From positions 1,664,001 to 1,728,000 of the forward strand of contig CBDHDG010000006.1 in assembly GCA_965261595.1 (NCBI GenBank): DNA of 64,000 bases, read 5' to 3'. The position numbers and the translations under genes are program-made. This document shows, piece after piece, positions 3,271 to 61,150 of this stretch (its first letter is position 1; each line of letters begins with the position of its first letter). Origin of the DNA: a bacterium. Its GTDB lineage: Bacteria > UBA8248 > JACPRG01 > G963555815. A model generated the notes under the pieces. That model saw only the letters and a list, made by a program, of their open reading frames with translations. It searched no databases and was not told the DNA's origin.

Positions 3271-4178
3271 CGTATTTATATACTTGACACAGACGACCAC
3301 AACATGTAGGTCGCGCCCGCGTCTCGGCTGACCACAAGATGTAGGGGCATGCTTCCATCGATCCGTTTCCAGAAGATGCGCTCTATCAGATCGTTCGGTT
3401 TCATTGATCGATAAAATCCACGCGCTGAATATCGCCCTTTTCATTGAAGTGTAAAAACAACTTTTTGTTTATATGCAATGTGTTGTTGGTTTTTCCTTTT
3501 CTTCCGTACTTAAACTCAAATTCAAGACCGCCCTCAAAAACGCCGCTTCTCTTCTGCTCTATAGGATATGTAGTGATCGTCAAACCACCCCATCCCTCCT
3601 GCAGGGATGGTATAGCTATTCTTGGCATATGGCTCTTTTGTCGGGTACAACTTATCAAATGTTGAGACGACATTTACAACCTCAAATGTCACCGGGAAAA
3701 GAGCTTTGTTGTTAAACGTAGCACCAATCCGCAGTGATTTTACTACACCAGCTTTGTCGATTATTCTGTCAGTTCTCACACTATGAAAGTTAAGCATATC
3801 CGCAACTCTATTACGATACCGCCATTCGCTGAATCGCAACAATCCCATAGAGGAAACTGAAAACAGAATGACCGCTCCAACATATAGGTTGAACAACTGG
3901 ATATGTTGCGCAAAACCGATCGTGACGCCAGCCGCCGTGACCGCAATGGGCCATATCCAGCTCCGCAGTAATTCACCCGCCAAAAAGAGGGCGACTTTGC
4001 GAAGCCAATTGAGCATGATTCAGTCATTGTATGATCCCTCTTCGGTTGAGTCAAGCGCATAATTGCGAATCCAACTCCACCATGACTTGAGTTGAAGCAT
4101 GCCCCTACATCTTGTGGTCAGCCGAGACGCGGGGACGATCTACATGTTGTGGTCGTCTGCGTCAAGTACATAATTCCG
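3271..4178. mobile_element. Non-autonomous IS1595-like cassette with ~85-bp inverted termini and AT-rich cargo gene
   Basis: 3271-3357 and 4093-4178 are inverted copies with few mismatches; right tip (rc CGGAATTATGTACTTGACGCAG) matches the TIR of the IS1595 at 27646 in 18/22 positions; no transposase inside; no TSD found. Confidence 0.75.
3401..4016 (-). CDS. Hypothetical membrane-anchored cargo protein, probable frameshift near 3560
   Basis: ORF 3534-4016 has two N-terminal hydrophobic segments and continues by a 1-nt shift into ORF 3401-3673 (IEQKRSGVFEGGLEFEFKYG...). Confidence 0.6.
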
Positions 4179-14486: not shown

Positions 14487-14666
14487 GTCATTCCCGCGTA
14501 GGCGGGAATCCATCAGTGTTTCCGATCGGTCCCAATCTTTCCGCCCGCCGGCTGCGCCGAAGGCCCTTCCTCCCCCCTCTTGTATATTTCTCAACTCATT
14601 GATCACGTGGGCGGGATGATGGACCGGCAACTCAGAACTCCGGATTCCCGCGTGCGCGGGATTGAC
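14487..14666. repeat. Inverted pair of GTCATTCCCGCG..GCGGGAATCC REP-type palindromes
   Basis: GTCATTCCCGCGTAGGCGGGAATCCA (14487-14512) and GGATTCCCGCGTGCGCGGGATTGAC (14642-14666). Confidence 0.75.
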
Positions 14667-21125: not shown

Positions 21126-21542
21126 ATGAAATTCCGCCTTCACAGACGTCCGGCAGTGCTCCAGAACCTTCTTCCCCTCATCGACGTCGTTCTCCTGCTA
21201 TTAATATTCTTCATGGTTTCTTCGACGTTTGTCCTACAACCGGGAATCCAGGTCAGCCTCCCGAAATCCACCATCGCCGAACGCCGGGAGCCGGAGGACG
21301 TGACGCTCATCCTGACCCGTGAGAAGGCCCTGTACTTGAATGATCGCAGGGTGACCGTGCCCGAGTTGTGGGGCCGGCTGGTGGACATGTATCGAAGGCG
21401 GCCCGACTTCATGTTGGTCATCAAGGCGGATCGGCAGGTCCCTCATGGGAGTGTGGTGGAAGTGATGGACATCGCCAAGCAGGCGGGTGTCCGCCGCCTG
21501 GCCATCGCCACTCGGCCCAAGAAGCAGGAAGCCAAACGGTGA
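21126..21542 (+). CDS. exbD: ExbD/TolR biopolymer transporter
   Basis: PLIDVVLLLLIFFMV, IKAD..VPHG.VV.VMD. Confidence 0.9.
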   Translation: MKFRLHRRPAVLQNLLPLIDVVLLLLIFFMVSSTFVLQPGIQVSLPKSTIAERREPEDVTLILTREKALYLNDRRVTVPELWGRLVDMYRRRPDFMLVIKADRQVPHGSVVEVMDIAKQAGVRRLAIATRPKKQEAKR

Positions 21543-22447
21543 GATTGCGGTGGGGATTTTGGGCTGGCGTGGGGGCTTCGATTGCCGTCCATGTCGGGTT
21601 CATGGTGATTGTGCCTCCGCCCGAGCCCCAGGCGGTGATGAGGACGCCGATGCACGTGGTCGAGCTTCGGAGGATGCGGATCCCGGTTCCGACCCCCCCC
21701 CCCCCCCCGAGCCCGCGGGAGCGTCCCGAACGGGAGCCGGTCGTCGGGCCGCCTCCTCCGCTCCCGCCTCCTCCGCCGGCCGCCTCGCCTCCCGTCGCGG
21801 CGCTGCGCCTGGAGGAGATGGTCCGGGCGGCCCGTCCGCCTGATTTCAAGGCCCCCCTTCCGATCCCGTCCGCCTTTGTGTTCGCCGACCGATTGGGGAA
21901 GACCCCGGTGGTCGCGCCGAAGGTTTTCAGTCACGCGAAATTGCCGCGTGGGACCCCGGGCGGATCGCCGCCGGTCGGCCGGTTCAAGATCCCGTCCGTC
22001 CGGTCCGGCGCGGCGGGGAGGCGGTCGGACGGGTTGCGAGCTCTTCGGAAGCGATTGATTCGGCAGGAGCTTCTCAAGGCTTCAGAGGCCGAGCCGGAGG
22101 AATTGGAGATCCGGGGCCCCGTCGCCGGGCGAGAATTGGTTTACCGGCCTCCGCCCCCCACCCCATTCCGCGGTGCGGAAGGCGAGATCAAGTTGAAATT
22201 CTGGGTGCTTCCCGATGGGACCGTGGGGCGGATTGTTCTCCTGGTCCGGGGGGACTCGTCCCTCGAGACGACCGCCATCGGGAATCTCAAGCGATGGAAA
22301 TTCAACACCCTCCCTCCCGGCGCCCGGGTTCCCGAGCAGTGGGGGACGATACGGTTCCGGTTCCTTTCCGGCGCGGCGATTTCGCCCATCGCCCCGGGGG
22401 TGCGCGTGCTGAAACCCAAGGTTCTCCGAGAGCTTCCCCTTCCCTGA
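21539..22447 (+). CDS. tonB: TonB family energy transducer
   Basis: N-terminal TM with SIAVH, proline-rich linker, C-terminal TonB domain (LKFWVLPDGTV...WKF). Confidence 0.75.
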   Translation: MRLRWGFWAGVGASIAVHVGFMVIVPPPEPQAVMRTPMHVVELRRMRIPVPTPPPPPSPRERPEREPVVGPPPPLPPPPPAASPPVAALRLEEMVRAARPPDFKAPLPIPSAFVFADRLGKTPVVAPKVFSHAKLPRGTPGGSPPVGRFKIPSVRSGAAGRRSDGLRALRKRLIRQELLKASEAEPEELEIRGPVAGRELVYRPPPPTPFRGAEGEIKLKFWVLPDGTVGRIVLLVRGDSSLETTAIGNLKRWKFNTLPPGARVPEQWGTIRFRFLSGAAISPIAPGVRVLKPKVLRELPLP

Positions 22448-27687: not shown

Positions 27688-27858
27688 CTAGGGTATGGCT
27701 GATTCATCGTTCACTTCAGCGTCTTTCGACCTTTCGCCCACAATCTTGTCTACTTCCTTCATAACCCGTTTTCCGAATATCTTCTCCATAAAATCATGGC
27801 CCGAAAGTTCGAGGTCTTCCTTTTTCAGTTCGTCTTTCTCTTTGGGGGATTGACCCAT
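27688..27858 (-). CDS. Small hypothetical protein divergent from the IS1595 transposase
   Basis: 56-aa charged ORF MGQSPKEKDEL...; start codon overlaps the transposase ATG (CATG). Confidence 0.4.
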   Translation of the reverse strand: MGQSPKEKDELKKEDLELSGHDFMEKIFGKRVMKEVDKIVGERSKDAEVNDESAIP

Positions 27859-28747
27859 GGACATGAACCTCGTTTCCTTGATGGACCGCTTCAACTGCGA
27901 TAAAAAGTGCCGAAAGGCCCTGGAGCATATCCGGTGGCCCAATGGTGTCGCCTGCACCCGTTGCGGCGATATGGACGTTCTTCCTCTTCCCAAACACTGC
28001 CGATGGGAATGTAAGTCATGCGGCTACCAGTTCAGCGTCATGTCGGGGACCATCATGCACGATTCTCATCTTGCCCTTCGCAAGTGGTTCCTGGCGATCT
28101 ACCTGATGTGCGAGTCGAAGAAGGGGATTTCCGCCCTTCAGATGAAGAGAACGCTTGGGACAACCTACCGGACGGCCTGGCACCTGTGCCACCGAATCCG
28201 CGAGGCGATGGGCAATGATCCGTTTGAGGGGCCTACGCTTCTCGGAGTGGTAGAGGTCGATGAAACGCTTGTGGGAGGCAAGAAGAAGGGCAAGGGCCGT
28301 GCCTACAAGGGCAACAAGGTTTGGGTCGCAGGAGCCATCCAGCGAGGCGGCAAGGTCCGGGTCGAGCGTATCTCCGACGTGAAACGTCACACGCTCCATG
28401 GATTCATTAGCCGCGCCGTTCGGGACGAAGCCGAGGCCATCTATACGGACGAATTGAAGTCCTACCTGGGAATTGCCGACAACAATACGCGCCATGAGAC
28501 GGTCAACCATTCAGCCGAACAATGGGTCATTGGCGAAGTTCACACCAACAGTATAGAAGGTGTTTGGAGCCTATTCAAGCGTTCCCTGATGGGTGCGTTC
28601 CACAAGATGAGCGCGAAGCACATGGACCGCTACCTCGAAGAGCTTGAATGGCGGTTCAACAACCGGAACAACCCGAATCTATTCCAAGATACCCTTGCCC
28701 GCATTATGGACACTAAGAATCTGACTTATCGGGAGTTGGTGGCTTAA
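27857..28747 (+). CDS. IS1595-family transposase
   Basis: Zn ribbon CTRC/CKSC, VEVDET, IYTDE, VNHS, HTNSIEGVWSLFKR, YLEE..WRFN. Confidence 0.95.
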   Translation: MDMNLVSLMDRFNCDKKCRKALEHIRWPNGVACTRCGDMDVLPLPKHCRWECKSCGYQFSVMSGTIMHDSHLALRKWFLAIYLMCESKKGISALQMKRTLGTTYRTAWHLCHRIREAMGNDPFEGPTLLGVVEVDETLVGGKKKGKGRAYKGNKVWVAGAIQRGGKVRVERISDVKRHTLHGFISRAVRDEAEAIYTDELKSYLGIADNNTRHETVNHSAEQWVIGEVHTNSIEGVWSLFKRSLMGAFHKMSAKHMDRYLEELEWRFNNRNNPNLFQDTLARIMDTKNLTYRELVA

Positions 28748-32608: not shown

Positions 32609-32941
32609 AGCTTAAAAAGATGGGAACCATACATGCGCTCAATAGCGGTTCACGGTTTTGACCCTCCCGGATAAGTCAGAGGGGGGATGGGTCCGCGTGA
32701 AATCGTATTACCCCGCTACGCTTTGGGGGAGCCGCCCGCCTATCGCCCCGGGTGTTGTCGGAGGGGCGGAGATCCAGGGTCCCGAAGGTCGGGTTGATCT
32801 TGGGGTTCCGGTGCGCCTCGGCGGCGCATTTCACGGTTTCCGTAAACAGAAACAAATCAAGGGGGGGACGCAAGAAAACGGGCGCCCCCGCCCTTGGGTT
32901 TCGTTGGACACTCGATCGAGTCATCAAGGCAAACCAATCGG

Positions 32942-35900
32942 ATGATCAAGCGACTCCTCATCTGGCTCACCTCCCTGCTTTATGAGCGAACCATCCTCGT
33001 TCTGAGCGTGATGTTCGTTGCCGGCGTGGCGGGCATGATTTGGGATGTTTCCCGTGTGCAGACAAATCTCATCGAAGCGACGGCATTGGAATACGCGACC
33101 GAGCACACCCACGCTCTGGCGGAATTTCGCACGCTCTATACGTCGGAAGTGGTTGCCCGCGTGAGGCCCTATGGGACCGAGGTGACCCATGACTACAAAT
33201 CAAAGGAAGGAGCCATCCCCCTTCCCGCCACGTTGAGCATGGAGCTCGGCAAAAGAATCGGGAAGCATCGTTCCGGGCTTCAATCCCGGTTGTACAGCGC
33301 CTATCCGTTTCCCTGGCGAAAAGACAAGGGCGGCCTGCGGGATGAATTTGCCAAGGAAGCCTGGAACCATTTGCGCCGGAATCCCGATAAACCTTTTTAC
33401 CGATTCGAGACATTCCAGGGCCGCCGCTCATTGCGATACGCGACGGCGGATTTGATGCGGCCCGCTTGCGTCAACTGTCACAACACGCACCCCGACTCCC
33501 CCAAAAAGGATTGGAAAGCGGGAGACGTAAGAGGGGTTCTGGAAATTGTACGCCCCATGGAGGCCATCGTCGCGCAGACGCGAGAAGGTCTAAGAAAAAC
33601 CTTTGGCCTGATGGTGGTGATGGCCGTGATGGGGCTGTCATGTCTCACCCTCGTGATTGGCAGGCAAAGGCGAACCTCGGCCGACTTGGGGCAGCGGGCT
33701 GAGGAGGTGGAAGCGGCCAACCGAGAGCTGAAAACCGAGATCGCCGAGCGCAAGCGGACCGAGGAGGCTCTCAAACTCACGCAATTCTCCGTCGAGCGAT
33801 CGGTGGACGCGACCTTCTGGATCGCGCCGGACAGCCGGATCCTGAACGTGAACGATGCGACATGCCGTCACTTCGGGTATTCACGGGAAGAGCTTCTCTC
33901 GATGACCATCTCGGACATCAACCTGGCCTACCCGCGGGAGAAATGGACCGAGCATTGGGAAAAAGTGAAGCGAAATGGATCTCTGACTTTCGAATCCATC
34001 TTAACGACCAAAGACGGCCGGGAGATGCCGGTCGAGATTACCGCCAACTACCTGGAATTCAACGGAAAGGAGTACATTTTCAGCTTTGCCCGCGACATCA
34101 CCGCGCGCAAGGAGGCGGAGGAAGCGTTGCGACTCACGCAATTCTCCGTTGACCGGGCGGGAGACGCCACCAACTGGATCGCGCGGGACGGCAAGATCCT
34201 CTATGTGAACGATGCGGAATGCGACTATCTCGGGTACTCGCGGGAAGAACTGCTCTCCATGACCATTTTCGAAATCGATTCGGAGCAATCGCCGGAGAAG
34301 TGGGCGGCGCATTGGAAAAAAGTGAAAGAAGCGGGTTCGCTTACATTTGAGTCAAGCCAAGTAACCAAAGACGGCGGGAAAATCCCGACCGAGGTGACCT
34401 CCAGTCACCTGGAGTTCAACGGAAAGGAGTACCTCGTCGGCTTTGTTCGCGACATCACCGAGCGCAAGCGGGCAGAGGAGGCGCTGCGGCTCACGCAGTT
34501 CTGCGTTGAGCGGGCGGGGGACCCCGTTTTTTGGTTCGGCCCGGACGGCCGGTTTCTTTACGTGAATGATGCGGCGTGCCGGTATCTCGGGTACTCACGG
34601 GAAGAGCTGCTCACGATGGCCGTCTCGGACATCAACCCGCAGCGTACGCCGGAGAAGTGGCCCGAGAGATGGGAAAAGAGGAAAGGGCGCGGACCGCAGA
34701 CCTTCGAGACCCGCCACCTCGCCAAGGACGGCCGGACGGTTCCGGTCGAGGTGACCGCCAACTACCTGGAGCTTAACGGAAAGGAGTATATGTTCAGCTT
34801 CGCCCGCGACATCACTGCGCGCAAACAGGCCGAGGAGGCGCTGCGGCTCACGCAGTTCGCGGTGGATCAGGCGGGGGACGCCATTTTCTGGGTGACGCCG
34901 GATGGTGGATACCACTATGTGAATGACGCGGCGTGCTGGTATCTCGGGTACTCCCGGGAAGAGTTGCTCTCCATGTCGGTCTGGGACGTCCAGCCGGATC
35001 TTTCGGCCGGGCAGTGGCCCGAGAGGTGGGAAGAGCTGAAACGGATCGGCGCTTTATCCGCCGAAACCCGCTACATGACCAAGAAAGGCGGAGTCGTTCC
35101 GGGCGAGGTATCCATCAACTAACTGGAATTCAACGGCAAAGAATACTCCCTGGGCTTCGTGAGGGACATCTCCGAGCGCATGCGCGCGGAAGAGACGCTA
35201 CGGCTCACGCAGTTCTCCGTTGACCGGGCCGGGGACGCCACATACTGGATCGGTGCGGACGGCCGAATCCTCTATGCCAACGAAGCGGCGCGCGCGGATC
35301 TCGGGTACTCAATGGATGAAATGATCTCCATGACGATCATGGACATCAATCCGGACTACTCACCGGACACCTGGGCGGCGCATTGGAAGCGGCTAAAAGA
35401 AAAGGGTTTCTATACCTTTGAAGGGCGCAACGTGACCAAAGACGGCCGCAAATTTCCGGTCGAAGTGACTTCCAACTATTTGGAGTTCAACGGAAAAGAG
35501 TACATTTTCGGCTTCGTCCGCAACATCACCGACCGCAAGGAGGCGGAGGAGACGCTGCGGCTCACGCAATTCTCCGTTGACCGGGCCGGGGACGCCACAT
35601 ACTGGATCGCGGAGGACGGCCGCTTCCTCTATGTGAACGACGCGGCGTGCAAAATGCTCGGATACTCACGGGAAAAGCTGCTCACGATGGCGGTCTGGGA
35701 CATCGACGCCAATCGCCGAATGGAACAGTGGATCGATAGACGGGAAGAGCGGAAACGCCATAAATTCTATACGTTAGAAACGGGCCACATGGCCAAGGAC
35801 GGCAGGGTCATCCCCGTTGAGATATCCGCCGACTGTCTCGAGTTCGGCGGCAAAGATTACATATTTGTCTCCGCCCGCGACATCACGGAGCGCAGACGGA

Positions 35901-37978
35901 TGGCGGACGACTTGCGGAAGGCGAAGGAGGCCGCCGAGGTCGCCAGCCGCGCGAAGAGTGAATTTCTCGCCAACATGAGCCACGAGATCCGGACACCGAT
36001 GAACGGTGTGATCGGCATGTCGGGGCTTCTCCTCGACACCGGTCTCAGCGATAAACAGCGCGAGTACGCCGAGATGATTCGAGACTCGGGTGAGAACCTG
36101 CTTGAGATTGTGAATGACATTCTCGATTTATCGAAGATTGAGGCGGAAAAGCTGACCATCGAGCCGGTCCCGTTCGACCTGCTGTCCGTTGTGGAAGAGA
36201 CGACCGAGTTCTTGGCGCCGAAGGCCGATGAAAAGGGCCTGTGTCTCATTGCCCGCTACGCCCCGGATCTCCCCCGTCACTTCATCGGTGACCCCGGACG
36301 AATTCGACAGATTCTCATTAATTTCATGGGCAACACCATCAAGTTCACGAACGAGGGGCACGTTCTGCTCGGCATCGAGGCGGACGCTGGGCGCGAGGGA
36401 AAATCAGGTCTTCGGATCTCCGTGGCGGATACCGGCATCGGCATCCGCGAAGACGCGATCGAGCGGATCTTCGAAAAATTCACACAGGCCGACGCTCCAG
36501 CCTCCCACGCGCATGGCGGAACGGGCCTCGGGCTTTCGATCTGCAAACAGCTCATCGAGTTGATGGGAGGGACCATCGGGGTGAACAGCAGGCCCGGCGC
36601 AGGATCGACCTTTTGGGTCACCCTCCATCTTCCCCTCGCCTCCGCCGCCTCGCCTCCGCCCCCGCCGGAGCTGGCGGGTGCTCGCATCCTGATCGCGGCC
36701 GGAAATGAGCTCAAGAGGCAAATCCTGTACGAGCAAGTGAGGCATTGGGGAATGCGCGCGGACCGCGTCACTTCCATCGAGGAGACGCTGACCGCGGTTC
36801 ATGACGCCCAAGAGGGCGTCGACCCATATCAGGCGGCCATTTTCACCGGCCAAAAAGACGGCGTGGACGCCGAGGCATTGGCCCGTGTCGTCCAATCCGA
36901 CCCCAATCTGCGTAAGGTCCCCGCGGTCATCATCGCCCCCTTGGGGCAGCGGGTGGATGCGGATCGAATGGCGAAAGCCGGAATCGCCGCATGCCTGAGC
37001 GAGCCTGTGCGGCAATCCGATCTGATGAACGCCCTGGCGGCGTTGCGCCGCTCGGCAGAGACGGGGCCCCTTCCGGAAAGGGTGACTCGGTTTGCCCCGG
37101 CCGATTCCCACTCTGAAAGGCCTGCCCGGGACCGACAGGACGGTCGGGTTCTCTCTCGCGTTTTGGTGGCTGAAGACAATGCCGTGAACCAAAAGGTGGC
37201 GAAGGGGATGCTGGAGAATCTGGGCTTTCGTGTGGACGTGGTGTCCAATGGCAAGGAGGCCCTCGAGATGTCCGCACTGCTCCCCTACGACGTAATTTTC
37301 ATGGATTGCCGTATGCCTGAGATGGACGGATACGAGGCGACGGCATTGATCCGCCGGAGGGAGCGGGAGGGTGGTTCTCGCGTCCCGATCATCGCCCTGA
37401 CGGCCCACGCCATGCAGGGTGAGCGGGAGAGGTGTCTGGCGGCGGGCATGGACGACTATGTCACCAAGCCGGTGAAGGTTGATGAGCTGAAGACTGTCCT
37501 GGCGCGCTGGATCGGAGACGTGGGAACGACGGACGCCCCGGCTCCCGCCAGGGTGGAGGGGGCCCGCGAAGTGACCCTCGACCTCGAGGCGCTCCGAGAA
37601 TTGGTCTCTGTCGCGGCGGCATCGGGTTCCGGCTTCGTGGAGGAAGCGGTGGCCACTTATTTATCGCAGACGCCCGTTCAAATTTCGGCCGTCCGAGCGG
37701 CTATAGCGCACAAGAACGCGCAAGACCTCAGCCGGGAGGCCCACAGCCTCAAGAGCCGCAGCGCAATCTTGGGCGCGCGAAACATGAGGGCATTGAGCGC
37801 TGAGCTGGAAGGGCGCGCGGAGGCGGACTCGCTGGAGGGGGCGGGAATGCTCCTCCGGAGATTGGAGGAGGAGTTTGACCGCGTGAAATCAGCGCTCGAG
37901 TCCGGGCTGTGGAAGGGCGAAGGGGTAAGCGTTTTGACAGCGGCCGGCCCGCTTGTTGTTTCTGAGAAGCCCGAATGA
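32942..37978 (+). CDS. Hybrid histidine kinase (TM, heme-c DUF3365-like sensor, TM, 6 PAS, HisKA/HATPase, 2 REC, Hpt) with in-frame TAA at 35120-35122
   Basis: CVNCH heme motif; FLANMSHEIRTPMNG; GGTGLGL; VAEDN..MDCRMP; AHSLKS; ORFs 32894-35122 and 35159-37978 are in the same frame. Confidence 0.88.
33776..35917 (+). repeat. Six tandem 357-bp PAS-coding repeats
   Basis: CTCACGCA(A/G)TTC anchors at 33776, 34133, 34490, 34847, 35204, 35561. Confidence 0.9.
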
Positions 37979-38028
37979 AACTCTGGAATTCCACCAAGTG
38001 TTTTTACCATGAGAAAGGACCACCCGAG

Positions 38029-39114
38029 ATGAGTGGAAAGATCCGCGTTTTGATCGTTGAGGATTCAGCTTTGGAGCGTTTCCTCCTCTGTGAGATTCTC
38101 TCCCAAGAGCCCGACATCGAGGTGGTCGATGTCGCGCCGGACGCCGATCGCGCCCGAAATAAAATGCGAATTCATAAGCCCGACGTTCTGACGCTGGACG
38201 TGAAGATGCCGGGCGAGGACGGCATTGCCTTCCTCACCGGGCTTATGTCCACGGACCCTCTTCCGGTCATCATGGTCAGCGCGTTCACCCTGGCGGGAGC
38301 GAAGACCACGCTGTCCGCCCTCGAGAAAGGCGCGGTGGATTTCGTCGCGAAACCCGATGGCAGCAAAGATGAAGATCTTGAAGTGTTCCGGCGGGAGCTC
38401 ATCCGGAAAGTGCGCGCCGCCGCCACGGCCCGTATGGGGCGGCATCCCCGGCCGGTCCCGACCCACGCGCCGGCGGAGCTGCCGGAAACACCGGGATTCA
38501 TCGTTGCGATTGGAACCTCGATGGGAGGTCCGGAAGCGTTGAGGAGTCTTCTTCCGAGACTTCCGGCCAATTTTCCGGCGATTCTGCTCGTCCAGCATAT
38601 GCCGGAGTACTTCACCCAGGCCATGGCCGAGAGCCTGGATAAGATCTGCGCCATCCACGTGAAGGAGGCGGAACAGGGCAAACCCGTCCTACCGGGTCAG
38701 GCGCTCATTGCTCCGGGAAATTGCCACATGGAGTTGCGGCGCCTGGGAACCCGCTATTATGTGGAGATTCACAAAAACCCCCGGGTGCGCGGGTTCCGGC
38801 CTTCTGTGGATGTGTTGTTCGAGTCTGTGGCCCAATACGCGGATTTGGACACCATAGGGGTCATCCTGACGGGGATGGGCTCGGATGGGGCGAAGGGCAT
38901 CTCCCGGACGAAGGCCGCCGGCGCGTACACCATTGCCCAGGACGAGGCAAGCTCTGTCATCTTCGGCATGCCCAAACAGGCCATCGCGACGGGGGCCGTC
39001 GATATCGTGCTTCCTCTCGAGGGAATCCCCGGCCATCTCATTAAAGCGATGCAAAGGGCAGGGGCGCCCTTGAAGAAGCCGGCCGGATCGCCGTTGGTCG
39101 CAGCGAGAACCTAG
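38029..39114 (+). CDS. cheB: Chemotaxis response regulator protein-glutamate methylesterase
   Basis: N-terminal REC; IGTSMGGP, VQHMP, RPSVDVLF, LTGMGSDGA, FGMP. Confidence 0.93.
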   Translation: MSGKIRVLIVEDSALERFLLCEILSQEPDIEVVDVAPDADRARNKMRIHKPDVLTLDVKMPGEDGIAFLTGLMSTDPLPVIMVSAFTLAGAKTTLSALEKGAVDFVAKPDGSKDEDLEVFRRELIRKVRAAATARMGRHPRPVPTHAPAELPETPGFIVAIGTSMGGPEALRSLLPRLPANFPAILLVQHMPEYFTQAMAESLDKICAIHVKEAEQGKPVLPGQALIAPGNCHMELRRLGTRYYVEIHKNPRVRGFRPSVDVLFESVAQYADLDTIGVILTGMGSDGAKGISRTKAAGAYTIAQDEASSVIFGMPKQAIATGAVDIVLPLEGIPGHLIKAMQRAGAPLKKPAGSPLVAART

Positions 39115-39221
39115 TGCTTATTTGCGAAAATTAGCATCTTCTCAAAGGCGGCAAATTGCCAATAAAATTCAGTCAAAATTGCCCAAAAATTAATACGCGA
39201 ACTTTTGCAACCAAGCACTAG
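39111..39221. mobile_element. MITE-like element 1, CTAG-bounded
   Basis: CTAGTGCTTATTTGCGAAAATT versus rc of right end CTAGTGCTTGGTTGCAAAAGTT (18/22); AT-rich interior. Confidence 0.65.
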
Positions 39222-39374
39222 TGTCGCGTCCCGGAAATAAATTCACGATTTCCGAACCTCCTCAAAGTAGGGCGCCACCGGCGGTTTGCCCGCCAGCGCC
39301 TCATTTTTCGGGAAATCCAAAGGGCATCCTGTCACCTGATATTTATTGAAAGGATTTCTGAGACGCGACACTAG
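39218..39374. mobile_element. MITE-like element 2, CTAG-bounded
   Basis: CTAGTGTCGCGTCCCGGAAAT versus rc of right end CTAGTGTCGCGTCTCAGAAAT (19/21). Confidence 0.7.
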
Positions 39375-39500
39375 GCCAAGTCATTCCCCCTTCTTTCGGA
39401 CAGGTTGTTGTCCCACACCGAGTTGACAAGATGAAGAAGGCTTGGCTTTTCTCTTTGTGAGAAACGCAGCCTCACCCGCCGTGTCGCTTGGACCCGGCAC

Positions 39501-39777
39501 GGGCTCCGCGCGCGCGCGGGGGGGGGGCCACCGACGCCAGCACAGAGAGCACTGATCGAGGGGCTCCGCGCGCGCGCGGGGGGGGGGCCTCTAAGCCCCC
39601 CAGCCCGTCTATCATGCGGCCGGCTCCGCGCGCGCGGGGGGGGGACGATCGCGGCCTTTCTTTTCTCAAAGGTTCCAATGGCTCCCCCCGCGCGCGCGGG
39701 GCGCGCGCGCGGGGGGAGCCCTGGCCAAATCTCTATCTCAGGTGACATAATGGGCTCCGCGCGCGCGGGGGGGGGCC
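39501..39777 (+). CRISPR. Orphan CRISPR-like mini-array, 5 repeats and 4 unique spacers (type I-E-like geometry)
   Basis: Repeats at 39501, 39561, 39621, 39680, 39752 (first two identical GGGCTCCGCGCGCGCGCGGGGGGGGGGCC); unique spacers of 31, 31, 32 and 31 nt; no cas gene in window. Confidence 0.7.
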
Positions 39778-39960
39778 TCACGGAACTGACCGGAAGCCGC
39801 GCGGAGCGCAGCGCGAGGCCTCGTGAAGGGGCATGTGTAGAGTCGATTAAATTGTTGTATGCTTGGATGATGTGACGCCACGCTGGAAACTGCTTCTCCT
39901 CATGGGGGGAAGCCGTTTCCCGATGTCGGGAAACCCAGGGGCCCTGCTGAAAGGGGGTAG

Positions 39961-41634
39961 GTGGTGTTGTGGATCATTTTGGCGATCGTGTTTGTCGTGG
40001 CCGCGCTTGCGATTCCTCGAAGGTTTCCCGATCCATCGGCAAAGAACGCCATCAGGGTGGTGTGCGGAATTCTCGCCCTGTTCCTCGTATTCTCCACCTC
40101 ATACGTGCATGTCGGGGCCGATGAGGTCGGCCACCTCAAGAAAATTTATTTCGGGCGGTCACTGCCGCCGGGAAAGATCATCGCCGTAAACGGAGAGAAA
40201 GGACCCCAGGCGGAGATCTTGCCGCCGGGTTTCCATTTCCGGCCCTTGCTCAACATCATTTACGATGTCGAGAAAAGGCCGATCATCGAAATTTCTGCAG
40301 GGAAATACGGATTTCTTACGGCAAGGGACGGCCGTCCGCTGAGAAAGGAACAATTTTTCGCGGAAGGATGGCCGGAGGTGGAATTCGTCCAGATGGCTCA
40401 GGATGCGGCGCAATTCATCAAGAAAGGGGGGCAGAAGGGACCTCAGCTCACGGTGCTGAAACCGGGACGATACCGGGTGAATCAGTACCTGTTCGAAGTG
40501 AAGCTGGACGTTGCGACGAGTATCGCGCCCGGCACGGTCGGCGTGGTCAAGTCCAACGTCCAGGAGCGGAAAGAGTGCAAACCACTGAAAACCGGGGGTG
40601 AAGGTGCGCTTTCGGCGCCTCTGGTGCCGAAATTCTGCATCGGCGTGTGGAACGAGCCCCTCTTTCCCGGAAAGTATTATCTAAACCGCAGCGCCTATGA
40701 AGTCACAATCATCAGCACCCGGGTGCGTGCATGGACGTATAAGGGGGGATACACGAAGCGCAGAATCGACCTCACCCTGGATCAAGAGGGCAAGATTTCC
40801 CAGAGCTTAAGGAGCGTGGGGATTCCCGTCCCGCAGAACGCGGCCGATTCCGCAATCCTGATCCGGGTCGAAGGCTGGGAGATTCCCCTGGAGCTTCGGG
40901 TCCTGGTGCAGATTGCGCCCGAAAACGCCCCGTTCGTCGTCGCCTCGGTCGGCGGCCTGGATAAGGTCGAGAATGCTGTCCTGACCCCGGCGCTGCGAAG
41001 TGTCGTCAGAAATGTCCTGGGCGCGAAGGGGCGGAAGGTCCTGGAGCTTCAGGACCAGCGGGCCGATCTCGAGGCCCTGGTCGAGTCGAAGATCCGGCCC
41101 GAAGGCGGGAAGGCCGGCATCTCCATCAACGAAGTCCGCTTTGCCGACCCCGTCATTCCGCCGGTGCTCCTGGTCACTTGGCGCCGTGAGCAGCTCGCCG
41201 AGCGACTCAGGCGAACCTACCAAAGAGAGCAGGCCGCGCAAGAGGAACGCATCAAGACCGAAAACACAAGGGCGCGGGCCGATAGACAGTCGCAGATCGT
41301 CGGGGCCGAGATTGCGGTGAAGGTGGCCGAACAGCGAAGGCAGGCGGCGAAACTGGAAGGCGAAGGCGAGAAGCTTCGCCTCCTGGAGATCGCCGCCGGC
41401 CAGCGGGCGCAGGTCGATGTGCTGGGAAAGGACCGCGTGTTGCAGTTGGCCCTGCTCGAAAAAATGCTCGCCGCCGCCGTAAAGAATCCGGCGCTGGTTA
41501 AGGTTCCCAACGTCCTGGTGCAGGGTGGGGGAGGAGGCCTCGCGGGCGCCGCTGCCATCCTTGGTCAGAGTAATCTGGTGCAGGGATTGGTCCGCCGCGC
41601 TCCGGTCGAAGGCTCCCCCACGAGGAAGAAGTAA
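39961..41634 (+). CDS. SPFH/band-7 (flotillin-like) membrane protein with repeated N-terminal modules and C-terminal coiled coil
   Basis: Two TM helices; repeats GEKGPQAEILPPG / GQKGPQLTVLKPG / GVWNEPLFPG; SPFH core (EGWEIPLELRV...LRSVVRN...INEVR). Confidence 0.8.
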   Translation: MVLWIILAIVFVVAALAIPRRFPDPSAKNAIRVVCGILALFLVFSTSYVHVGADEVGHLKKIYFGRSLPPGKIIAVNGEKGPQAEILPPGFHFRPLLNIIYDVEKRPIIEISAGKYGFLTARDGRPLRKEQFFAEGWPEVEFVQMAQDAAQFIKKGGQKGPQLTVLKPGRYRVNQYLFEVKLDVATSIAPGTVGVVKSNVQERKECKPLKTGGEGALSAPLVPKFCIGVWNEPLFPGKYYLNRSAYEVTIISTRVRAWTYKGGYTKRRIDLTLDQEGKISQSLRSVGIPVPQNAADSAILIRVEGWEIPLELRVLVQIAPENAPFVVASVGGLDKVENAVLTPALRSVVRNVLGAKGRKVLELQDQRADLEALVESKIRPEGGKAGISINEVRFADPVIPPVLLVTWRREQLAERLRRTYQREQAAQEERIKTENTRARADRQSQIVGAEIAVKVAEQRRQAAKLEGEGEKLRLLEIAAGQRAQVDVLGKDRVLQLALLEKMLAAAVKNPALVKVPNVLVQGGGGGLAGAAAILGQSNLVQGLVRRAPVEGSPTRKK

Positions 41635-43315: not shown

Positions 43316-44852
43316 TCAGACCTGATTATAGCGATGAAGCCGGGGCGCGGTGACGCCGGCCTCCTGTTCCCACCCCCGGCTGTGGCGACGGATTCCCTCC
43401 AGAACCGGCGCGAAGAATTCCAAGTCCTTCCCCAGCCGTTTATATCTCTTCCGCGCCGTCTCGCGGAACCTTCGGCCGGTATCCGCCTCGTTCACCCGAA
43501 CGCTCTTTCCCTCCCGCCGGACGACCTCGCCTTGGGTGAGGACCGTGTGGACGTCCCTGGGTCCTTGGCATCTGTGAAGGAGGATCGTCCACGGATCGAG
43601 GTCCGGATGGGAAGCCGGGTCGTCGAAGATCCGTCTTCCGTCGAGGATGACGATGTCGGCGGTCTTGCCTTCCTCCAGGCTGCCCAGGCCGTCGTGCATC
43701 GCGATCCGGTTGCCTTCCTGAATTCCGCGCGTGAACCATTCCTCGGCCGGGATCGGCTCCCAGTCGATCGAGGGCGGCCGCGCCAGGAACCAGCCGAGGC
43801 GCATTTCGGTCCAGATGTCGTTATCGTCGTTGAAGGCGGAGCCGTCCGTCCCCATGGCGAACCGGACTCCCTCCCTGCGCATCACGGAGACAGGTGCGAT
43901 CCCGCTGACCAATTTAAGGTTCGACGTCGGACAATGGACGATGGCCGTTCCGGTGTCGGCGATCATCCGGATATCCTCTTCCGGGGGCCAAACGAAATGG
44001 GCGAAGCTGACTTCCGGACCCAGAAAGCCGATTGCCTGGAGGTGAGAAGCAACGCTCTGGCCCAACTGTCTGGGTCCATACATCATCTCATACCGGGATT
44101 CGGCGACGTGAATCTGGATGCCGGTCCCCGCCTCCGCCGCCTTTTTCTTGATGCGCTTCAGCAGGCCGTCGGATGCCCACTGTACGCCCAAAGGGGTGAG
44201 GAAGATCCGAATCAGGCCGTCCTTGCCGTTGAACTCACCGTAGATCCCGTCGAACACCCGGAAGTATTCATCCAGGTCCGGAGGCGCCAGGAACGCTTCC
44301 GCCCACTTCCGTTGGGCCGCCGGCAGGCCCATGAGGAAAGGCCCGTGGTCTCCATAGACGAAGGGATTCTGATCCCCCATCGAAACACCGAACGACATTC
44401 GAACTCCGGCGTCCAGGTATGCCTGGATGGCGGCCGGGAGCCCCCACCGGGGCAGGTGCGGAGCTGGTCGGGGGAAAATCCACCACCGTAGTCACACCGG
44501 ACCGCTGGAGCTCCAGGGCGGACCAGAGGGTGTACAGGTAGATCTCCTCTTCGGTCATTTCCGCGCGATAGCTCCCGAAGATCAGCGGGAGCCACCTCTC
44601 CAGAGGCAAATCTCTCAGCCCGTCGCGGATGCTGTTCCCCGCGTGATGGTGGGCGCTGACCAGGCCGGGCATGGCCACGTCGCGCTCCAGAGATCCCAGC
44701 GTTTCGTCAAAGGGGCCGCGGGCGGACAACGCGTCGTGGGGGCCGACGGCCTCGACCTTGCCTCCATCCACGATGACCGCGCCTTCGCGGATGACGTCTT
44801 CGCGGTCCCGGAGCGTCAGGACGCGGTTGGCGCGAATCAGGATTCGGCTCAT
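43316..44852 (-). CDS. Amidohydrolase (paralog 1), frameshift near 44470
   Basis: ORFs 44268-44852 and 43316-44398 join by removing 1 nt in TTTCCCCCGA; colinear with the adjacent paralog. Confidence 0.8.
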
Positions 44853-45005: not shown

Positions 45006-46541
45006 TCAGATCTGGTTGTAACGATGAAGCTTCGGGTCCGGCACATCGGTCTCCCGTTCCCAGACCTGGAAATACTTGTGGATGCCTTCGATGATCGGCT
45101 CGAAGAACGGCTTGTCTTTTTTGAGCCGCGCGTGCCGGTCCTCGAGCAGTCCGGCCAGCCTGCGGCCGATGTCCGCCTCGTCCACGAGGACGTTCTTCCC
45201 CTCCCGCCGGACGACCTCGCCCTTGGTCAGGACGGTGTGAACGTCCCTGTGCCCCTGGCACCGGTGGAGGAGGACCGCCCAGGGATCGAGGTCCGGATAG
45301 GAAACCGGGTCGTCGAAAATACGCCGGCCGTCCAGGATGGTGATGTCCGCGGTCTTGCCTTCCTCCAGGCTGCCCAGGCCGTCGTGCATCGCGATCCGGT
45401 TGCCTTCCTGAATTCCGCGCGTGAACCATTCCTTGGCCGGGATCGGCTCCCAGTCGATCGAGGGCGGCCGCGCCAGGAACCAGCCGAGGCGCATTTCGGT
45501 CCAGATGTCGTTGTCGTCGTTGAAGCTCGAGCCGTCGGTGCCGAAGGCGAACCGGAGGCCCATCTCCCGCATTGTTGCGATCGGGCAGATCCCGCTGGCC
45601 AGCTTGACGTTCTGGGTGGGGTTGTGGGTGATGGCCGTTCCGGTGTCCACGAGAATTTGGATGTCCTCCCGGGTCGGCCAGATGGAGTGGGCGAAGCTGA
45701 CCTCCGGGCCGAGGAAGCCGATGTCGTTCAGGTGGCCGATGGTGCTCGTTCCCAGCAGCTTGGGGCCGTACATCATCTGGTAGCGCGACTCGACGACGTG
45801 GATCTGAAGGCCCGTCCCCAGCTCATTCGCTTTCTTCTTGGCGCGCTTCAGCAGGTCGTCCGAGGTCCACTGGACGCCCAGGGGCGTGACGAAGACCCGG
45901 ACGGTGTCGTTCTTGCCGTTGAACTCGGCGTGCACGTCATCCACGACCCGAAAGTATTCGTCCAGGTCGGGCGCGCCCATGAAACCTTCCGCCCACTCCC
46001 GCTGGGCCTGGGGCAGCCCGTTGAGGAACTCCGTGTGATCGCCGTATACGAAGGGATTCTGGTCCCGCGTCGATACGCCGAACGAGACCCGGATCCCCGC
46101 GTCGAGGTATGCCTGGATGCAGGGCGGGAACCCCCACCGGGGGAGGTTCATCGAGGGCGCGTGGAAATCCACCACCGTGGTGACGCCGCACCGCTGAAGC
46201 TCCAGAGCGGACCAGAGGCTGCGCAGGTAGGTCTCCTCCTCGGTCATCCCGACGCGATAGCTTCCGAAGATGAGCGGAACCCACATCTCCAAGGGGACGT
46301 CCGACAGCCCGTCGCGGACGTTGTTTCCCGCGTGATGGTGGGCGCTGACCATTCCGGGAATGACGACGTCGTGGTCGAGGGAGCCCAGCTCTTCGTCGAA
46401 GGGGCCGCGGGAGGACAGGTCGTCGTGGGCGCCGACCGCTTCGATCGCGCCGTCGGCCACGATCACCGCGCCCTTGCGAATGAGATCATCGCCGTCCTGA
46501 AGTGTCAGGACGCGGTCGCCTCGGATGAGGATTCGGCTCAT
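45006..46541 (-). CDS. Amidohydrolase (paralog 2)
   Basis: PGMVSAHHH, QIHVVES, SFAHS, HNPTQN, FGTDG. Confidence 0.88.
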   Translation of the reverse strand: MSRILIRGDRVLTLQDGDDLIRKGAVIVADGAIEAVGAHDDLSSRGPFDEELGSLDHDVVIPGMVSAHHHAGNNVRDGLSDVPLEMWVPLIFGSYRVGMTEEETYLRSLWSALELQRCGVTTVVDFHAPSMNLPRWGFPPCIQAYLDAGIRVSFGVSTRDQNPFVYGDHTEFLNGLPQAQREWAEGFMGAPDLDEYFRVVDDVHAEFNGKNDTVRVFVTPLGVQWTSDDLLKRAKKKANELGTGLQIHVVESRYQMMYGPKLLGTSTIGHLNDIGFLGPEVSFAHSIWPTREDIQILVDTGTAITHNPTQNVKLASGICPIATMREMGLRFAFGTDGSSFNDDNDIWTEMRLGWFLARPPSIDWEPIPAKEWFTRGIQEGNRIAMHDGLGSLEEGKTADITILDGRRIFDDPVSYPDLDPWAVLLHRCQGHRDVHTVLTKGEVVRREGKNVLVDEADIGRRLAGLLEDRHARLKKDKPFFEPIIEGIHKYFQVWERETDVPDPKLHRYNQI

Positions 46542-58627: not shown

Positions 58628-61150
58628 CTATCCCACCTCCGCCAAGTCCAGCCGATCACCCCAACGTTCTTTCACCCAGGCCCGCAGGCCCTGGTGCGCG
58701 GGCGCGGTCAGGTCCGGGTCCCGATCCACGAGGGCGAAGGCGTCCTCCCTCGCCTGCGTCAGCAGGTCGGTGTGGCGCAGCAGGCGGGTGAAGCGCAGAT
58801 CCGGGGCGCCGGCCTGTTTTGTCCCGAACATCTCGCCCGGTCCGCGGATCTCGAAGTCGCGGTCGGCGATTTGGAACCCGTCGGCGGTTTCGGCCATGAC
58901 GGCGAGGCGGGCCTCGGCCTCCGCCGTGAGCGGGGGGCGGGCCCGTAGGAAGCAGTAAGCCTTCTCTCCTCCCCGGCCCACCCGGCCCCGAAGCTGGTGG
59001 AGCTGGGACAGACCGTAGCGGTCCGCGTCCTCCACCCACATCACGGTGGCGTTCGGGACGTCCACGCCGACTTCGATCACCGTCGTTGTGACCAGGAGCC
59101 TGATGTCCCCCCGGCGAAATCCCTCCATGACCGCCTCTTTCTCCTCGGTCTTCATCCGGCCGTGAAGGAGCCCCACCCGAAACGGGTGAAGCTCGCGGCG
59201 AAGCCGATCCGCTGTCTCGACGGCGGCCTTCAGGTCCGACCGCTCCGTTTCCTCGATCCGGGGCGACACATGGTAGGCCTGCCGTCCGGCCCCCAGCTCG
59301 CGCCGGAGAAGACGCCACGCGGCCTCCGCTTTCCCCCCCACGTGCACGGCTGTCTCGACGGGCATTCTTCCAGGCGGCATCTCGTCGAGAAGGGAGAGGT
59401 CCAGGTCTCCGTACAAGGTCAGCGAGAGGCTCCGGGGGATGGGCGTCGCCGTCATGACGAGGACGTCGGGGTCGCTCCCTTTATCCCGGAGGGCCGAGCG
59501 CTGCATCACGCCGAAACGCTGTTGCTCGTCGATCACCGCGAGACCCAGGGACTTGAACCGCACGTCCGTCTGAATGAGCGCGTGTGTCCCAATGACCAAG
59601 GAGACGGACCCCTTCATTACGCTGTCGAGCAGGTCCGCCCGCTCCTTTTCCTTCATGCGCCCGGTGAGAAGCCCGGAGCGCACGCCCAGGGCGTCCGTCC
59701 AGCGCCGAACGGTTGCGGCGTGCTGCTCGGCCAGAATCTCCGTCGGGGCCAGCAGGACCGCCTGATGGCCGCTTTGAATCGCCGATAGCGCCGCCCAGAC
59801 CGCCACAACGGTTTTCCCGCTTCCGACGTCCCCCTGGAGGAGCCGGTTCATGGGCGAGGGGGCCAGCAGATCGCGGCCGATCTCCCCGAGGACCCGCTCC
59901 TGGGCGGAGGTCAGGTTGAACGGGAGGTTTTTCAGGAATCGGGCCGCCAGGGGACGATCCAGGTTGTAATCGCGGCCGCGCCGCCGCCGCTTCATCCGGT
60001 CTCTGCGCAGCGCGAGACCCGTTTGCAATCCGAACAGCTCGTCGAAGATGAGCCGCCGGTGCCACGGCGAGCGGCCGGCGTTGAGCGCTTCCGGATCGGC
60101 CGCGCCGCCGCCGTCGGTCATGGCCCCTTCCTCCGCCGCCGGGCCTTCGCCCGGAGGAAAGTGCACGCCCCGCAGGGCCTCCGACAGCGGGAGGAGTCCT
60201 CTTCGTTTCCGGATCGCTTTCGGGACGACGTCGGAGACCTGGCCGGAGAAGTCGTCGACCACCTTTTTCATCCAAACGCGGAAGGCCCTCGGCCTCACGC
60301 CTTCGGTAGCGGGGTAAAAGGGGACGATCCGCCCCGTGTGGAGGGAATCCCGGCCGCTCCCGTCTTCCTCCAGCTCCTCCACCTCCGGGTGGTGGACCTC
60401 GAGGCGTCCCCGCCGCCGGGGGTTGGAGCGGACGACGCCGCTGAACACAAACGTCCGGCCGGGCCGGTAGCGGTCCTTCATGGAGGCGGTCCGGAAGGCG
60501 AACCAGACAGCGGTGAGGACGCCGGCCGAATCTCCCAGCGTCACCTCGTAGATCCTTCGGCCCCGTCCGATGAACGCCGCGCCGCCCTCGAGGACTGTCG
60601 CCGAGAAGGTTTCCTCCTGTCCGGGCCGGAGGGCGGAGAGGGGTTGAAGACGCGAGCGATCCACGTATTTGCGCGGCAGGAAGAAGAGGGCGTCACCGAT
60701 GGTCCTGATCCCCAGACGGGCGAAGGTTTCGGCCCGTTTCGGCCCGACCCCGCGAACCCGTTGAATGGAGTCGGTGAGAAGGGGCCCTTCCGGAGAGGGG
60801 GCCTTCCGCCGGTTTCCCGCGCGCCGTTCTTCGGCCTTTCGGCGCGGGGACTCGCGGCCGCGGCGAGGACGCCGCCGAAGCGCCTTCTCGATTTCGTCGA
60901 GAAGTCTCAACGCCGATTCAATCCGTCCACGTTTTTCGCCGGCATCCAGGCCGTCGAACCCCCGGACGGCGTCGCCGAGCTTCTTCAGGCGGGTTGCGGC
61001 CGCCTTGGGCGGCCGCTCCGCTTCGATCTCGCGGAGCCAGACCGAGACCGATCGCTCGAGACCGGTGAGGGCGTCGATTTTCGCAAAATCATTTCGGGAA
61101 GCGAACTGAAGGGGTCTTCGGAGCTTTTCGAGGGGGTCCGGTTTCGCCAT
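58628..61150 (-). CDS. recG: ATP-dependent DNA helicase RecG
   Basis: MNRLLQGDVGSGKT, APTEILAEQH, MTATPIPRSL, QLHQLRGRVGRG, DFEIRGPGE. Confidence 0.96.
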   Translation of the reverse strand: MAKPDPLEKLRRPLQFASRNDFAKIDALTGLERSVSVWLREIEAERPPKAAATRLKKLGDAVRGFDGLDAGEKRGRIESALRLLDEIEKALRRRPRRGRESPRRKAEERRAGNRRKAPSPEGPLLTDSIQRVRGVGPKRAETFARLGIRTIGDALFFLPRKYVDRSRLQPLSALRPGQEETFSATVLEGGAAFIGRGRRIYEVTLGDSAGVLTAVWFAFRTASMKDRYRPGRTFVFSGVVRSNPRRRGRLEVHHPEVEELEEDGSGRDSLHTGRIVPFYPATEGVRPRAFRVWMKKVVDDFSGQVSDVVPKAIRKRRGLLPLSEALRGVHFPPGEGPAAEEGAMTDGGGAADPEALNAGRSPWHRRLIFDELFGLQTGLALRRDRMKRRRRGRDYNLDRPLAARFLKNLPFNLTSAQERVLGEIGRDLLAPSPMNRLLQGDVGSGKTVVAVWAALSAIQSGHQAVLLAPTEILAEQHAATVRRWTDALGVRSGLLTGRMKEKERADLLDSVMKGSVSLVIGTHALIQTDVRFKSLGLAVIDEQQRFGVMQRSALRDKGSDPDVLVMTATPIPRSLSLTLYGDLDLSLLDEMPPGRMPVETAVHVGGKAEAAWRLLRRELGAGRQAYHVSPRIEETERSDLKAAVETADRLRRELHPFRVGLLHGRMKTEEKEAVMEGFRRGDIRLLVTTTVIEVGVDVPNATVMWVEDADRYGLSQLHQLRGRVGRGGEKAYCFLRARPPLTAEAEARLAVMAETADGFQIADRDFEIRGPGEMFGTKQAGAPDLRFTRLLRHTDLLTQAREDAFALVDRDPDLTAPAHQGLRAWVKERWGDRLDLAEVG

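Follow-up and report, generated by a model that had tools for sequence, protein, structure and literature searches.

The intergenic locus at 39501-39777 of the bacterial DNA analysed here (a stretch of 64,000 nucleotides, hereafter the window) is a real CRISPR-type array pattern of five repeats and four spacers. The array is very probably a CRISPR array of type I-E, and it is most likely an inert relic. The full account favoured here, that of a decayed, inert orphan array derived from type I-E in which the odd repeats are real, is given a probability of about 0.5.

The repeats fall into three forms, described here on the + strand, to which the array is tentatively assigned. R1 (39501-39529) is a 29-nt unit composed of GGGCTC, (CG)6, a G-run and CC, and R2 (39561-39589) is identical to it over the same 29 nt. 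R3 (39621-39646) has 26 nt and, relative to R1, lacks one CG unit and one G and ends in AC, not CC; R5 (39752-39777, 26 nt) is the short form seen in R3 but with the CC end. R4 (39679-39720) extends to 42 nt because 13 nt of a 29-nt unit occur as two exact tandem copies (39689-39714). An alignment of all five repeats that includes 3-nt flanks has a mean column identity of 64%. The initial annotation had described every repeat by the formula GGCTCC(GC)nG9-10, which suits four of the five (R1, R2, R3 and R5, reading GGCTC(CG)5-6 G9-10) and fails for R4, a 41-nt perfect palindrome with a C-arm.

Between these repeats lie spacers of 31 nt (39530-39560, GC 0.61), 31 nt (39590-39620, GC 0.65), 32 nt (39647-39678) and 31 nt (39721-39751), the third and fourth with GC contents of 0.47 and 0.42 against 0.63 for the window. 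Any two spacers share 12-18 identical positions, as compared with 16.0 +/- 2.4 for random 31-mers of the window, and no copy of a spacer occurs elsewhere in the window at up to 8 mismatches. The locus thus displays the generic CRISPR hallmark of diverse, unique spacers of near-constant length (31, 31, 32 and 31 nt). Successive repeats start 60, 60, 58 and 73 nt apart, and the last interval becomes 60 nt once the duplication in R4 is discounted. The earlier description of unrelated, constant-length spacers at a period of about 60 bp is therefore borne out, and the spacer strings given at that time agree with the present ones except for a 1-nt choice of register in spacer 3.

The repeat is confined to the array. 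A 16-nt core, allowed up to 2 mismatches, has five matches in the 64-kb window, all of them inside the array, and 0 copies in the rest of the 64 kb; shuffled windows contain a mean of 0.49 matches, and five were reached in 0 of 100 shuffles. Detection of the array depends on the tool. Tandem Repeats Finder reports just the (CG)n run and the 13-nt duplication of R4 and misses the 60-nt array, whereas a seed-based repeat finder detects it, so the warning that repeat finders could overlook such a locus applies to the former and not to the latter.

The direction of the array is weakly resolved: the mean identity of R1 to nine I-E repeats is 18.0/29 on the + strand and 15.7 on the - strand. Protein matches, considered as a further guide to orientation, are uninformative, since the repeat core is palindromic and the open frames of I-E arrays are biased to one strand. 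If the array reads on the + strand, the putative leader flank would be 39375-39500, where GC is about 0.5. The identical repeats R1 and R2 lie on one side and the variant repeats on the far side, an arrangement that fits the usual decay from leader to trailer. R4, the I-E-like repeat, sits between the short-form R3 and R5, an order that misfits simple duplication at the leader end.

Comparison with known type I-E repeats provides the main grounds for the subtype assignment. The reference set comprises the annotated E. coli K-12 I-E locus, whose array lies beside cas2, and eight I-E loci from GC-rich or diverse hosts, drawn from 67 plasmid records with cas6e that were retrieved by tblastn with the K-12 CasE protein; GC-rich plasmids of Kitasatospora, Streptomyces, Euzebya, Ideonella and others are among them. 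All nine loci have 29-nt repeats, and a spacing of 61 is by far the commonest in eight of the nine, the Thermus locus having mostly 62. Aligned without gaps and in register, R1 is identical to these repeats at 16-20 of 29 positions (mean 18.0), while the I-E repeats agree among themselves at 17-27 of 29 (mean 20.8). Shuffled versions of R1 score 12.4 +/- 1.3 against the same set, and a mean of 18.0 was reached by 0 of 1000. When about 128,000 29-mers of the window are ranked by I-E identity, the six best all lie in the array; the best 29-mer outside it has a mean identity of 17.56 (127,220 tested), which is close to the 18.0 of R1.

The likeness extends to individual positions. Ten columns are invariant in the nine-sequence I-E alignment, and R1 retains eight of them, failing at the stem base C8 and at T23, which directly follows the stem, with a G at both. 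Lengths agree in part: R1 and R2 match the I-E repeat at 29 nt, R3 and R5 are shorter at 26 nt, and R4 measures 42 nt, or 29 nt when de-duplicated. The period of the array is 60 nt as compared with 61 nt in I-E, consistently short by 1-3 nt per unit; with a conserved core of 28 nt, the spacers would measure 32 nt. The derivation from type I-E proposed in the initial annotation accordingly finds support in the mean identity of R1 (18.0), in the retention of 8 of 10 invariant columns and in matches to translated I-E arrays, lines of evidence that partly overlap.

A covariance model built from the nine repeats and the I-E stem, and run over the window with filters off, is too short to discriminate. 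It gives 17.3 bits to the core of R4, 13.5 bits to R5 (E about 0.023), 13.1 bits to R3 (a partial match) and at most 8.8 bits to R1 and R2, and with 101 window matches at E <= 10 it does not separate the array from background hairpins. Two hairpins, at 14487-14515 (17.9 bits) and 14641-14666 (17.6 bits), outscore every repeat. Both proved to be small palindromes of other sequence whose motif is not enriched (3 occurrences against 2.19 expected), and they were set aside.

Predicted RNA folds distinguish the repeats from genuine I-E repeats. The genuine repeats have a central 7-bp stem with a 4-nt loop in the centroid structure of four of the five that were folded; three of the five leave 4 and 7 end bases free, and z-scores range from -1.4 to -3.6 over the five. 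R1, R3 and R5 fold no better than shuffled sequences (z of -0.46, +0.04 and -0.66, respectively), and in R1 and R5 the two ends pair with each other (GGCUCC with GGGGCC), the middle being poorly paired. A central stem like that of the genuine repeats appears in the inner part of R4 only. On these predictions, transcripts of R1-R5 would lack free handles and would probably be poor substrates for a Cas6e-type nuclease.

R4 illuminates how the repeat forms may be related. Its positions 39680-39720 form a perfect 41-nt palindrome with a 19-bp stem and a 3-nt loop (-47.9 kcal/mol, z = -7.0), and its C-arm is retained as a run of C after GGCT. Within it, the inner hairpin at 39686-39701 is an exact I-E stem-loop consensus (17.3 bits in the covariance model, model positions 6-21). 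The supposed loss of the C-arm thus describes four of the five repeats, or more exactly the presence in them of G in place of a single C of the arm, and does not describe R4. Removal of one duplicate copy, joining 39679-39701 to 39715-39720, yields a 29-nt unit whose 28-nt core is still a perfect palindrome. R1 differs from this de-duplicated unit at five positions and has G at all five, three of the differences being C to G. Four of them fall in the core, each in a separate base pair of the full-length hairpin; the core of R1 is self-complementary at 20 of 28 positions, and exactly those four positions break it. Because the four mismatched positions account for the 20/28 of the R1 core, R4 equals R1 made fully complementary plus the duplication. 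Hairpin-templated repair can perfect quasi-palindromes. R1 may be a decayed perfect palindrome, or R4 may be a quasi-palindrome perfected by such repair, and both fit the sequences.

The array occupies an 850-bp gap between two + strand genes, a CheB-type methylesterase with a receiver domain upstream (37975-39114, NCBIfam E = 3.5e-122) and an SPFH/Band 7 protein downstream (39961-41634). To its left are an AT-rich stretch (GC 0.39 at 39100-39199) and a MITE-like element of 157 bp bounded by 28-nt inverted repeats (39218-39245 and 39347-39374). An IS1595 transposase lies 11 kb from the array, and no phage or plasmid genes were found around it. The window extends 39.5 kb upstream of the array and 24 kb downstream, and it contains neither tRNA nor tmRNA.

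Cas genes were sought among the longest ORFs of each locus. Pfam was applied to 50 of the 262 ORFs of at least 80 aa, and NCBIfam (32 ORFs) and PADLOC (28 ORFs) to those that Pfam left unassigned or that lie near the array; no I-E cas gene (cas3, cse1, cse2, cas7e, cas5e, cas6e, cas1e or cas2e) and no other Cas family was found among them. Rows labelled Cas3 were rejected as weak helicase-C matches of a RecG protein with a wedge domain (58628-61150). The earlier statement that the 64 kb hold no cas gene stands for the ORFs screened (Pfam 50/262, NCBIfam 32, PADLOC 28), and the term orphan applies to the array within the 64-kb window only.

Scans for RNA and regulatory signals returned little. 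Rfam gives 0 matches at the gathering threshold across the whole window; at E <= 10 on 39100-39980 it returns 12 sub-threshold rows, none from a CRISPR-DR family, which were dismissed as eukaryotic miRNA and lncRNA noise on GC hairpins. The promoter scan has no promoter-like site on either candidate leader side, and the promoter/terminator scan has 0 terminators. Spacer 4 holds a promoter-like match directed towards the SPFH gene (TGGCCA, 18 nt, CATAAT), a consensus hit only, in a scan with 2 such hits in 1.3 kb as compared with 0.4 expected.

The search for related arrays covered one genome from each of 185,579 species, a collection that excludes the window's own contig, and no sister array was found in these genomes. 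The sole match to the repeat pattern, on a MAG contig, is an isolated copy within the coding sequence of a SAM-methyltransferase (Methyltransf_30, E = 1.5e-27). No array surrounds it, and it was attributed to chance. Target searches, which the initial annotation had proposed, were also negative. With the whole array as query, blastn returned 2 phage records (best E = 4) and 13 plasmid records (best E = 1), all judged chance matches. Anti-cas or self-targeting spacers did not emerge from comparison with the cas loci of the nine I-E references or with the remainder of the window, where the longest match is 13 nt or less; for the cas loci this comparison spans unrelated hosts and is weak.

Two ORFs run through the array, one on the - strand (39371-39781) and one on the + strand (39488-39745). 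Both have a Pro/Ala/Arg/Gly-type translation set by the repeats, and both stay open because a 60-nt period corresponds to 20 codons and keeps the frame. Neither belongs to a Pfam, NCBIfam or PADLOC family. The - strand ORF has 684 word-sharing candidates, none of them at E <= 0.001. The + strand ORF has three matches at E <= 0.001 in a phmmer search of 1.84 billion representative proteins. The top match, P0003 (3,822 aa), is Ser/Glu-rich, has none of the array motifs and was discarded as unrelated. The other two, P0004 (228 aa, E 4e-5) and P0005 (178 aa, E 7e-5), contain three peptide motifs that cycle every 20-21 residues, and nothing else in the library resembles the + strand ORF.

The identity of P0004 and P0005 became apparent through a test set of 373 pieces obtained by six-frame translation of the nine I-E arrays. 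P0004 and P0005 match 70 and 73 of these pieces, with best E-values of 3e-43 and 4e-24, respectively, and they are translated I-E arrays. For the + strand ORF of the window, 8 of the 373 pieces are matched (best E 1.4e-5). Its similarity to P0004 and P0005 is weak and rests on Arg/Gly/Pro-rich peptides.

A plausible history for a decayed I-E array can be proposed from these observations. An I-E-type Cas1-Cas2 integrase would have built the array, duplicating the leader-side repeat with each new spacer; R1 and R2 would then be identical because the leader-side repeat is copied at each acquisition. The cas genes would later have been lost or separated from the array, and the repeats would have drifted through substitution and through slippage in the (CG)n and G tracts. 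Four repeats would thereby have come to carry G in place of one C of the stem's C-arm and of the invariant T after the stem, and the I-E hairpin with its free flanks would have given way to a fold in which both ends pair. R4 retains the I-E hairpin, and its 13-nt duplication turns it into a 19-bp perfect hairpin. Since a Cas6e-type nuclease would process repeats in this state poorly, the array is most likely inert. Orphan arrays and degenerate CRISPR-Cas remnants are known, as described in PMC8616872. In the rating scheme outlined for CRISPRCasFinder, four spacers are the minimum for evidence levels 2-4, levels 3-4 call for well-conserved repeats, and heterogeneous repeats lower the rating (PMC6030898); the present array has exactly four spacers, and its repeats are heterogeneous.

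The oddity of the repeats could instead be an artefact, as the initial annotation had suggested in speaking of distortion by basecalling. According to this explanation, the locus is an ordinary I-E array with identical true repeats, and strong all-GC hairpins provoked either systematic errors of base and length within the (CG)n and G tracts or loops in the assembly graph, while the spacers were read correctly; it is the main rival, unlikely but with a chance that has to be reckoned with. The differences between R1 and de-duplicated R4 all run in one direction, toward G in R1 at each of the five sites and from C at three, and the repeats otherwise vary in nothing but tract lengths and the tandem duplication, while the spacers hold steady at 31-32 nt and every unit falls 1-3 nt under the 61-nt I-E period. 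Illumina miscalls are described as clustering at inverted repeats and GGC motifs, where they copy the preceding one or two bases, and G-C conversions are described as dominant in GC-rich genomes (PMC3141275); the array repeats carry both triggers. A single in-frame TAA at 35120-35122, which breaks a long PAS-kinase frame, could be another base error. Yet R1 equals R2 exactly and R3 and R5 share the short form, while there are three forms in all: systematic error would be expected to produce one form and random error no identical pairs, so the three observed forms fit neither alone. The sequence also continues directly from each G-run into unique spacer, and G/C homopolymers of at least 7 in the window number 26 as compared with 26.4 in shuffles, which is no excess; general assembly corruption of the window, considered as a wider form of the same problem, is not seen in these counts. 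If the repeats are taken as real, the array might still be functional in trans with co-evolved cas genes elsewhere in the genome, which is improbable. The absence of cas genes concerns only the 39.5 kb upstream and 24 kb downstream, the identity of R1 and R2 could mark a recent acquisition, and functional orphan arrays are reported, among them I-F arrays of E. coli with which interference still takes place (PMC8616872). The heterogeneity of the repeats speaks against function, as do the lack of a promoter-like site on either candidate leader side, the lack of protospacers in phages or plasmids, folds no better than those of shuffles, and a scan of 185,579 species that produced one solitary chance copy and no array. 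Given the same absence of sister arrays and protospacers, and the folds, the undescribed class of guide arrays acting in trans that the initial annotation had entertained has no support, and the Z-DNA or G-quadruplex roles that it mentioned are speculative.

Other readings place the locus outside CRISPR altogether. It might be a cluster of REP-like GC palindromes, or a structured regulatory element, DNA or RNA, in front of the SPFH gene, with even spacing that is coincidental or structural; this is decidedly improbable. The repeats are quasi-palindromic (20/28 in the R1 core, perfect in R4), the SPFH gene follows the cluster closely, at 39961 and on the same strand, spacer 4 includes a promoter-like site, and several kinds of false CRISPRs are documented (PMC5294841). 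On the other side, REP families are dispersed, whereas this repeat has 0 further copies in 64 kb; unrelated spacers of a constant 31-32 nt are the signature of an integrase ruler; the likeness to I-E exceeds the hairpin and extends to register and length; and the + strand ORF has no short relatives other than translated I-E arrays. That the region encodes a repetitive protein is hardly credible. ORFs are open through the array on both strands, but their Pro/Ala/Arg/Gly strings are dictated by the repeats and have no known family; the - strand ORF has no relatives, and the short relatives of the + strand ORF are translated CRISPR arrays only. The most unusual possibility, for which the prospects are very slim, is that the locus represents a living I-E-derived lineage whose all-GC repeat forms an end-to-end hairpin, with Z-DNA-prone (CG)n and G-runs, and is processed by a host RNase or a diverged Cas6 for use in trans by cas genes outside the window, or else that the array was co-opted as a regulatory element upstream of the SPFH gene.

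The decayed orphan array, if its sequence is right, would document a type I-E system that has been lost or lies far away, and would be a small natural example of repeat decay without selection for processing. The modes of decay that it would illustrate are slippage where the tracts are simple, the disappearance of stem pairs, and a tandem duplication by which one repeat becomes perfectly palindromic. Should the sequence be wrong, it would serve as a useful caution: base calls can fail in all-GC hairpin repeats even when the spacers between them are correct. Either way, low-complexity masking and tandem-repeat finders can hide arrays of this kind, and public protein libraries contain translated CRISPR arrays that are usable as a handle for recognition. 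No new question about CRISPR biology arises from the locus.

Set against known systems, the array is closest in its details to type I-E. R1 and R2 share with the I-E repeat a length of 29 nt and, in register with it, have a 5' G..CTCC, a stem-loop of GC, a run of G and a 3' end in ..CC, and the unique spacers of about 32 nt also correspond. Unlike I-E arrays, the present one has repeats of 26, 29 and 42 nt, four of the five with G at C8 and T23; the repeat ends pair instead of staying free, and there are no cas genes among the window ORFs screened. REP and BIME elements are GC-rich imperfect palindromes that cluster in intergenic DNA and form families dispersed in many copies. The array likewise is an intergenic cluster of GC-rich imperfect palindromes, but its repeat occurs nowhere else in the 64 kb, and genomes of 185,579 species yielded no array of it.

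False CRISPRs, a category that includes tandem repeats within genes, STAR-like elements and simple repeats, resemble the array in having no cas genes and heterogeneous, low-complexity repeats; those described in PMC5294841 are without diverse spacers, whereas the spacers here are mutually random-like and the locus is intergenic. Mini-arrays of viruses and mobile elements and solitary repeat units, as covered in PMC8616872, likewise have very few spacers and no cas genes alongside. Unlike the array, which has four spacers with no targets found, these mini-arrays usually have one spacer, repeats nearly identical to those of the host and identifiable targets (PMC8616872). Orphan arrays in the same source, such as E. 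coli I-F arrays with anti-cas spacers and a Listeria orphan locus, keep intact repeats and in some cases activity, whereas the repeats here are degraded; like them, the present array is short, stands without adjacent cas genes and retains a recognisable subtype ancestry (PMC8616872).

The left flank of the five-repeat, four-spacer type I-E-like array (39501-39777) carries two pairs of inverted repeats. Directly left of the array, within 39104-39374, lies an AT-rich stretch (GC 0.39), and in it an inverted pair of 37 nt (39104-39140 and 39192-39228) is 73% identical. After the AT-rich stretch comes a 157-bp MITE-like element, whose ends are 28-nt inverted repeats at 39218-39245 and 39347-39374 (82%) and whose terminal 13-mer has no second copy within the window. 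An IS1595-family transposase (27857-28747; DDE_Tnp_IS1595, E = 5e-37) is encoded approximately 11 kb upstream of the array. Inside the array, spacer 4 contains a promoter-like site at 39722-39751 (TGGCCA and CATAAT separated by 18 nt, with an upstream TG) directed at the SPFH gene (39961), a match to consensus only, with two such sites in 1.3 kb vs 0.4 expected.

Hairpins also occur away from the array. A covariance model built from nine type I-E repeats scores two small hairpins near 14.5 kb, at 14487-14515 on the + strand and 14641-14666 on the - strand, at 17.9 and 17.6 bits, respectively, higher than the array itself. Each hairpin is formed by ATTCCCGCG, a 4-nt loop, and CGCGGGAAT; with 3 matches in the window vs 2.19 expected, this motif shows no enrichment. 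The pair stands in opposite orientation, approximately 150 nt from each other, in the intergenic gap between the pantoate ligase and TPR genes.

Longer repeats are present as well. Inverted repeats of 85 nt (3271-3355 and 4094-4178; 92% identity) enclose a 738-nt segment containing a 160-aa ORF assigned to no family (3534-4016, - strand), and the whole may be a small element that is mobile or can invert. Two amidohydrolase paralogues of the chlorohydrolase/deaminase family lie in tandem on the - strand (43316-44398 and 45006-46541), sharing 73-88% DNA identity across approximately 1.3 kb (43469-44765 vs 45159-46454), and the ORF of the upstream copy is the shorter (360 vs 511 aa). In a PAS-repeat hybrid histidine kinase (32894-37978), a PAS unit of 357 nt occurs 5.5 times in tandem with approximately 71% identity. 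A lone in-frame TAA (35120-35122) divides the kinase into two same-frame ORFs, the mark of either a pseudogene or a base error. A TonB-like ORF (21368-22447) contains, in its proline-rich part, 16 C in an unbroken run (21693-21708), a purity unusual for coding sequence.

The + strand ORF through the array weakly matches two proteins of the representative library, P0004 and P0005, in which three peptide motifs recur every 20-21 residues; both are themselves translated type I-E CRISPR arrays. Such library "proteins" are annotation artefacts, and translated arrays of this kind in public libraries can be used to recognize CRISPR arrays.
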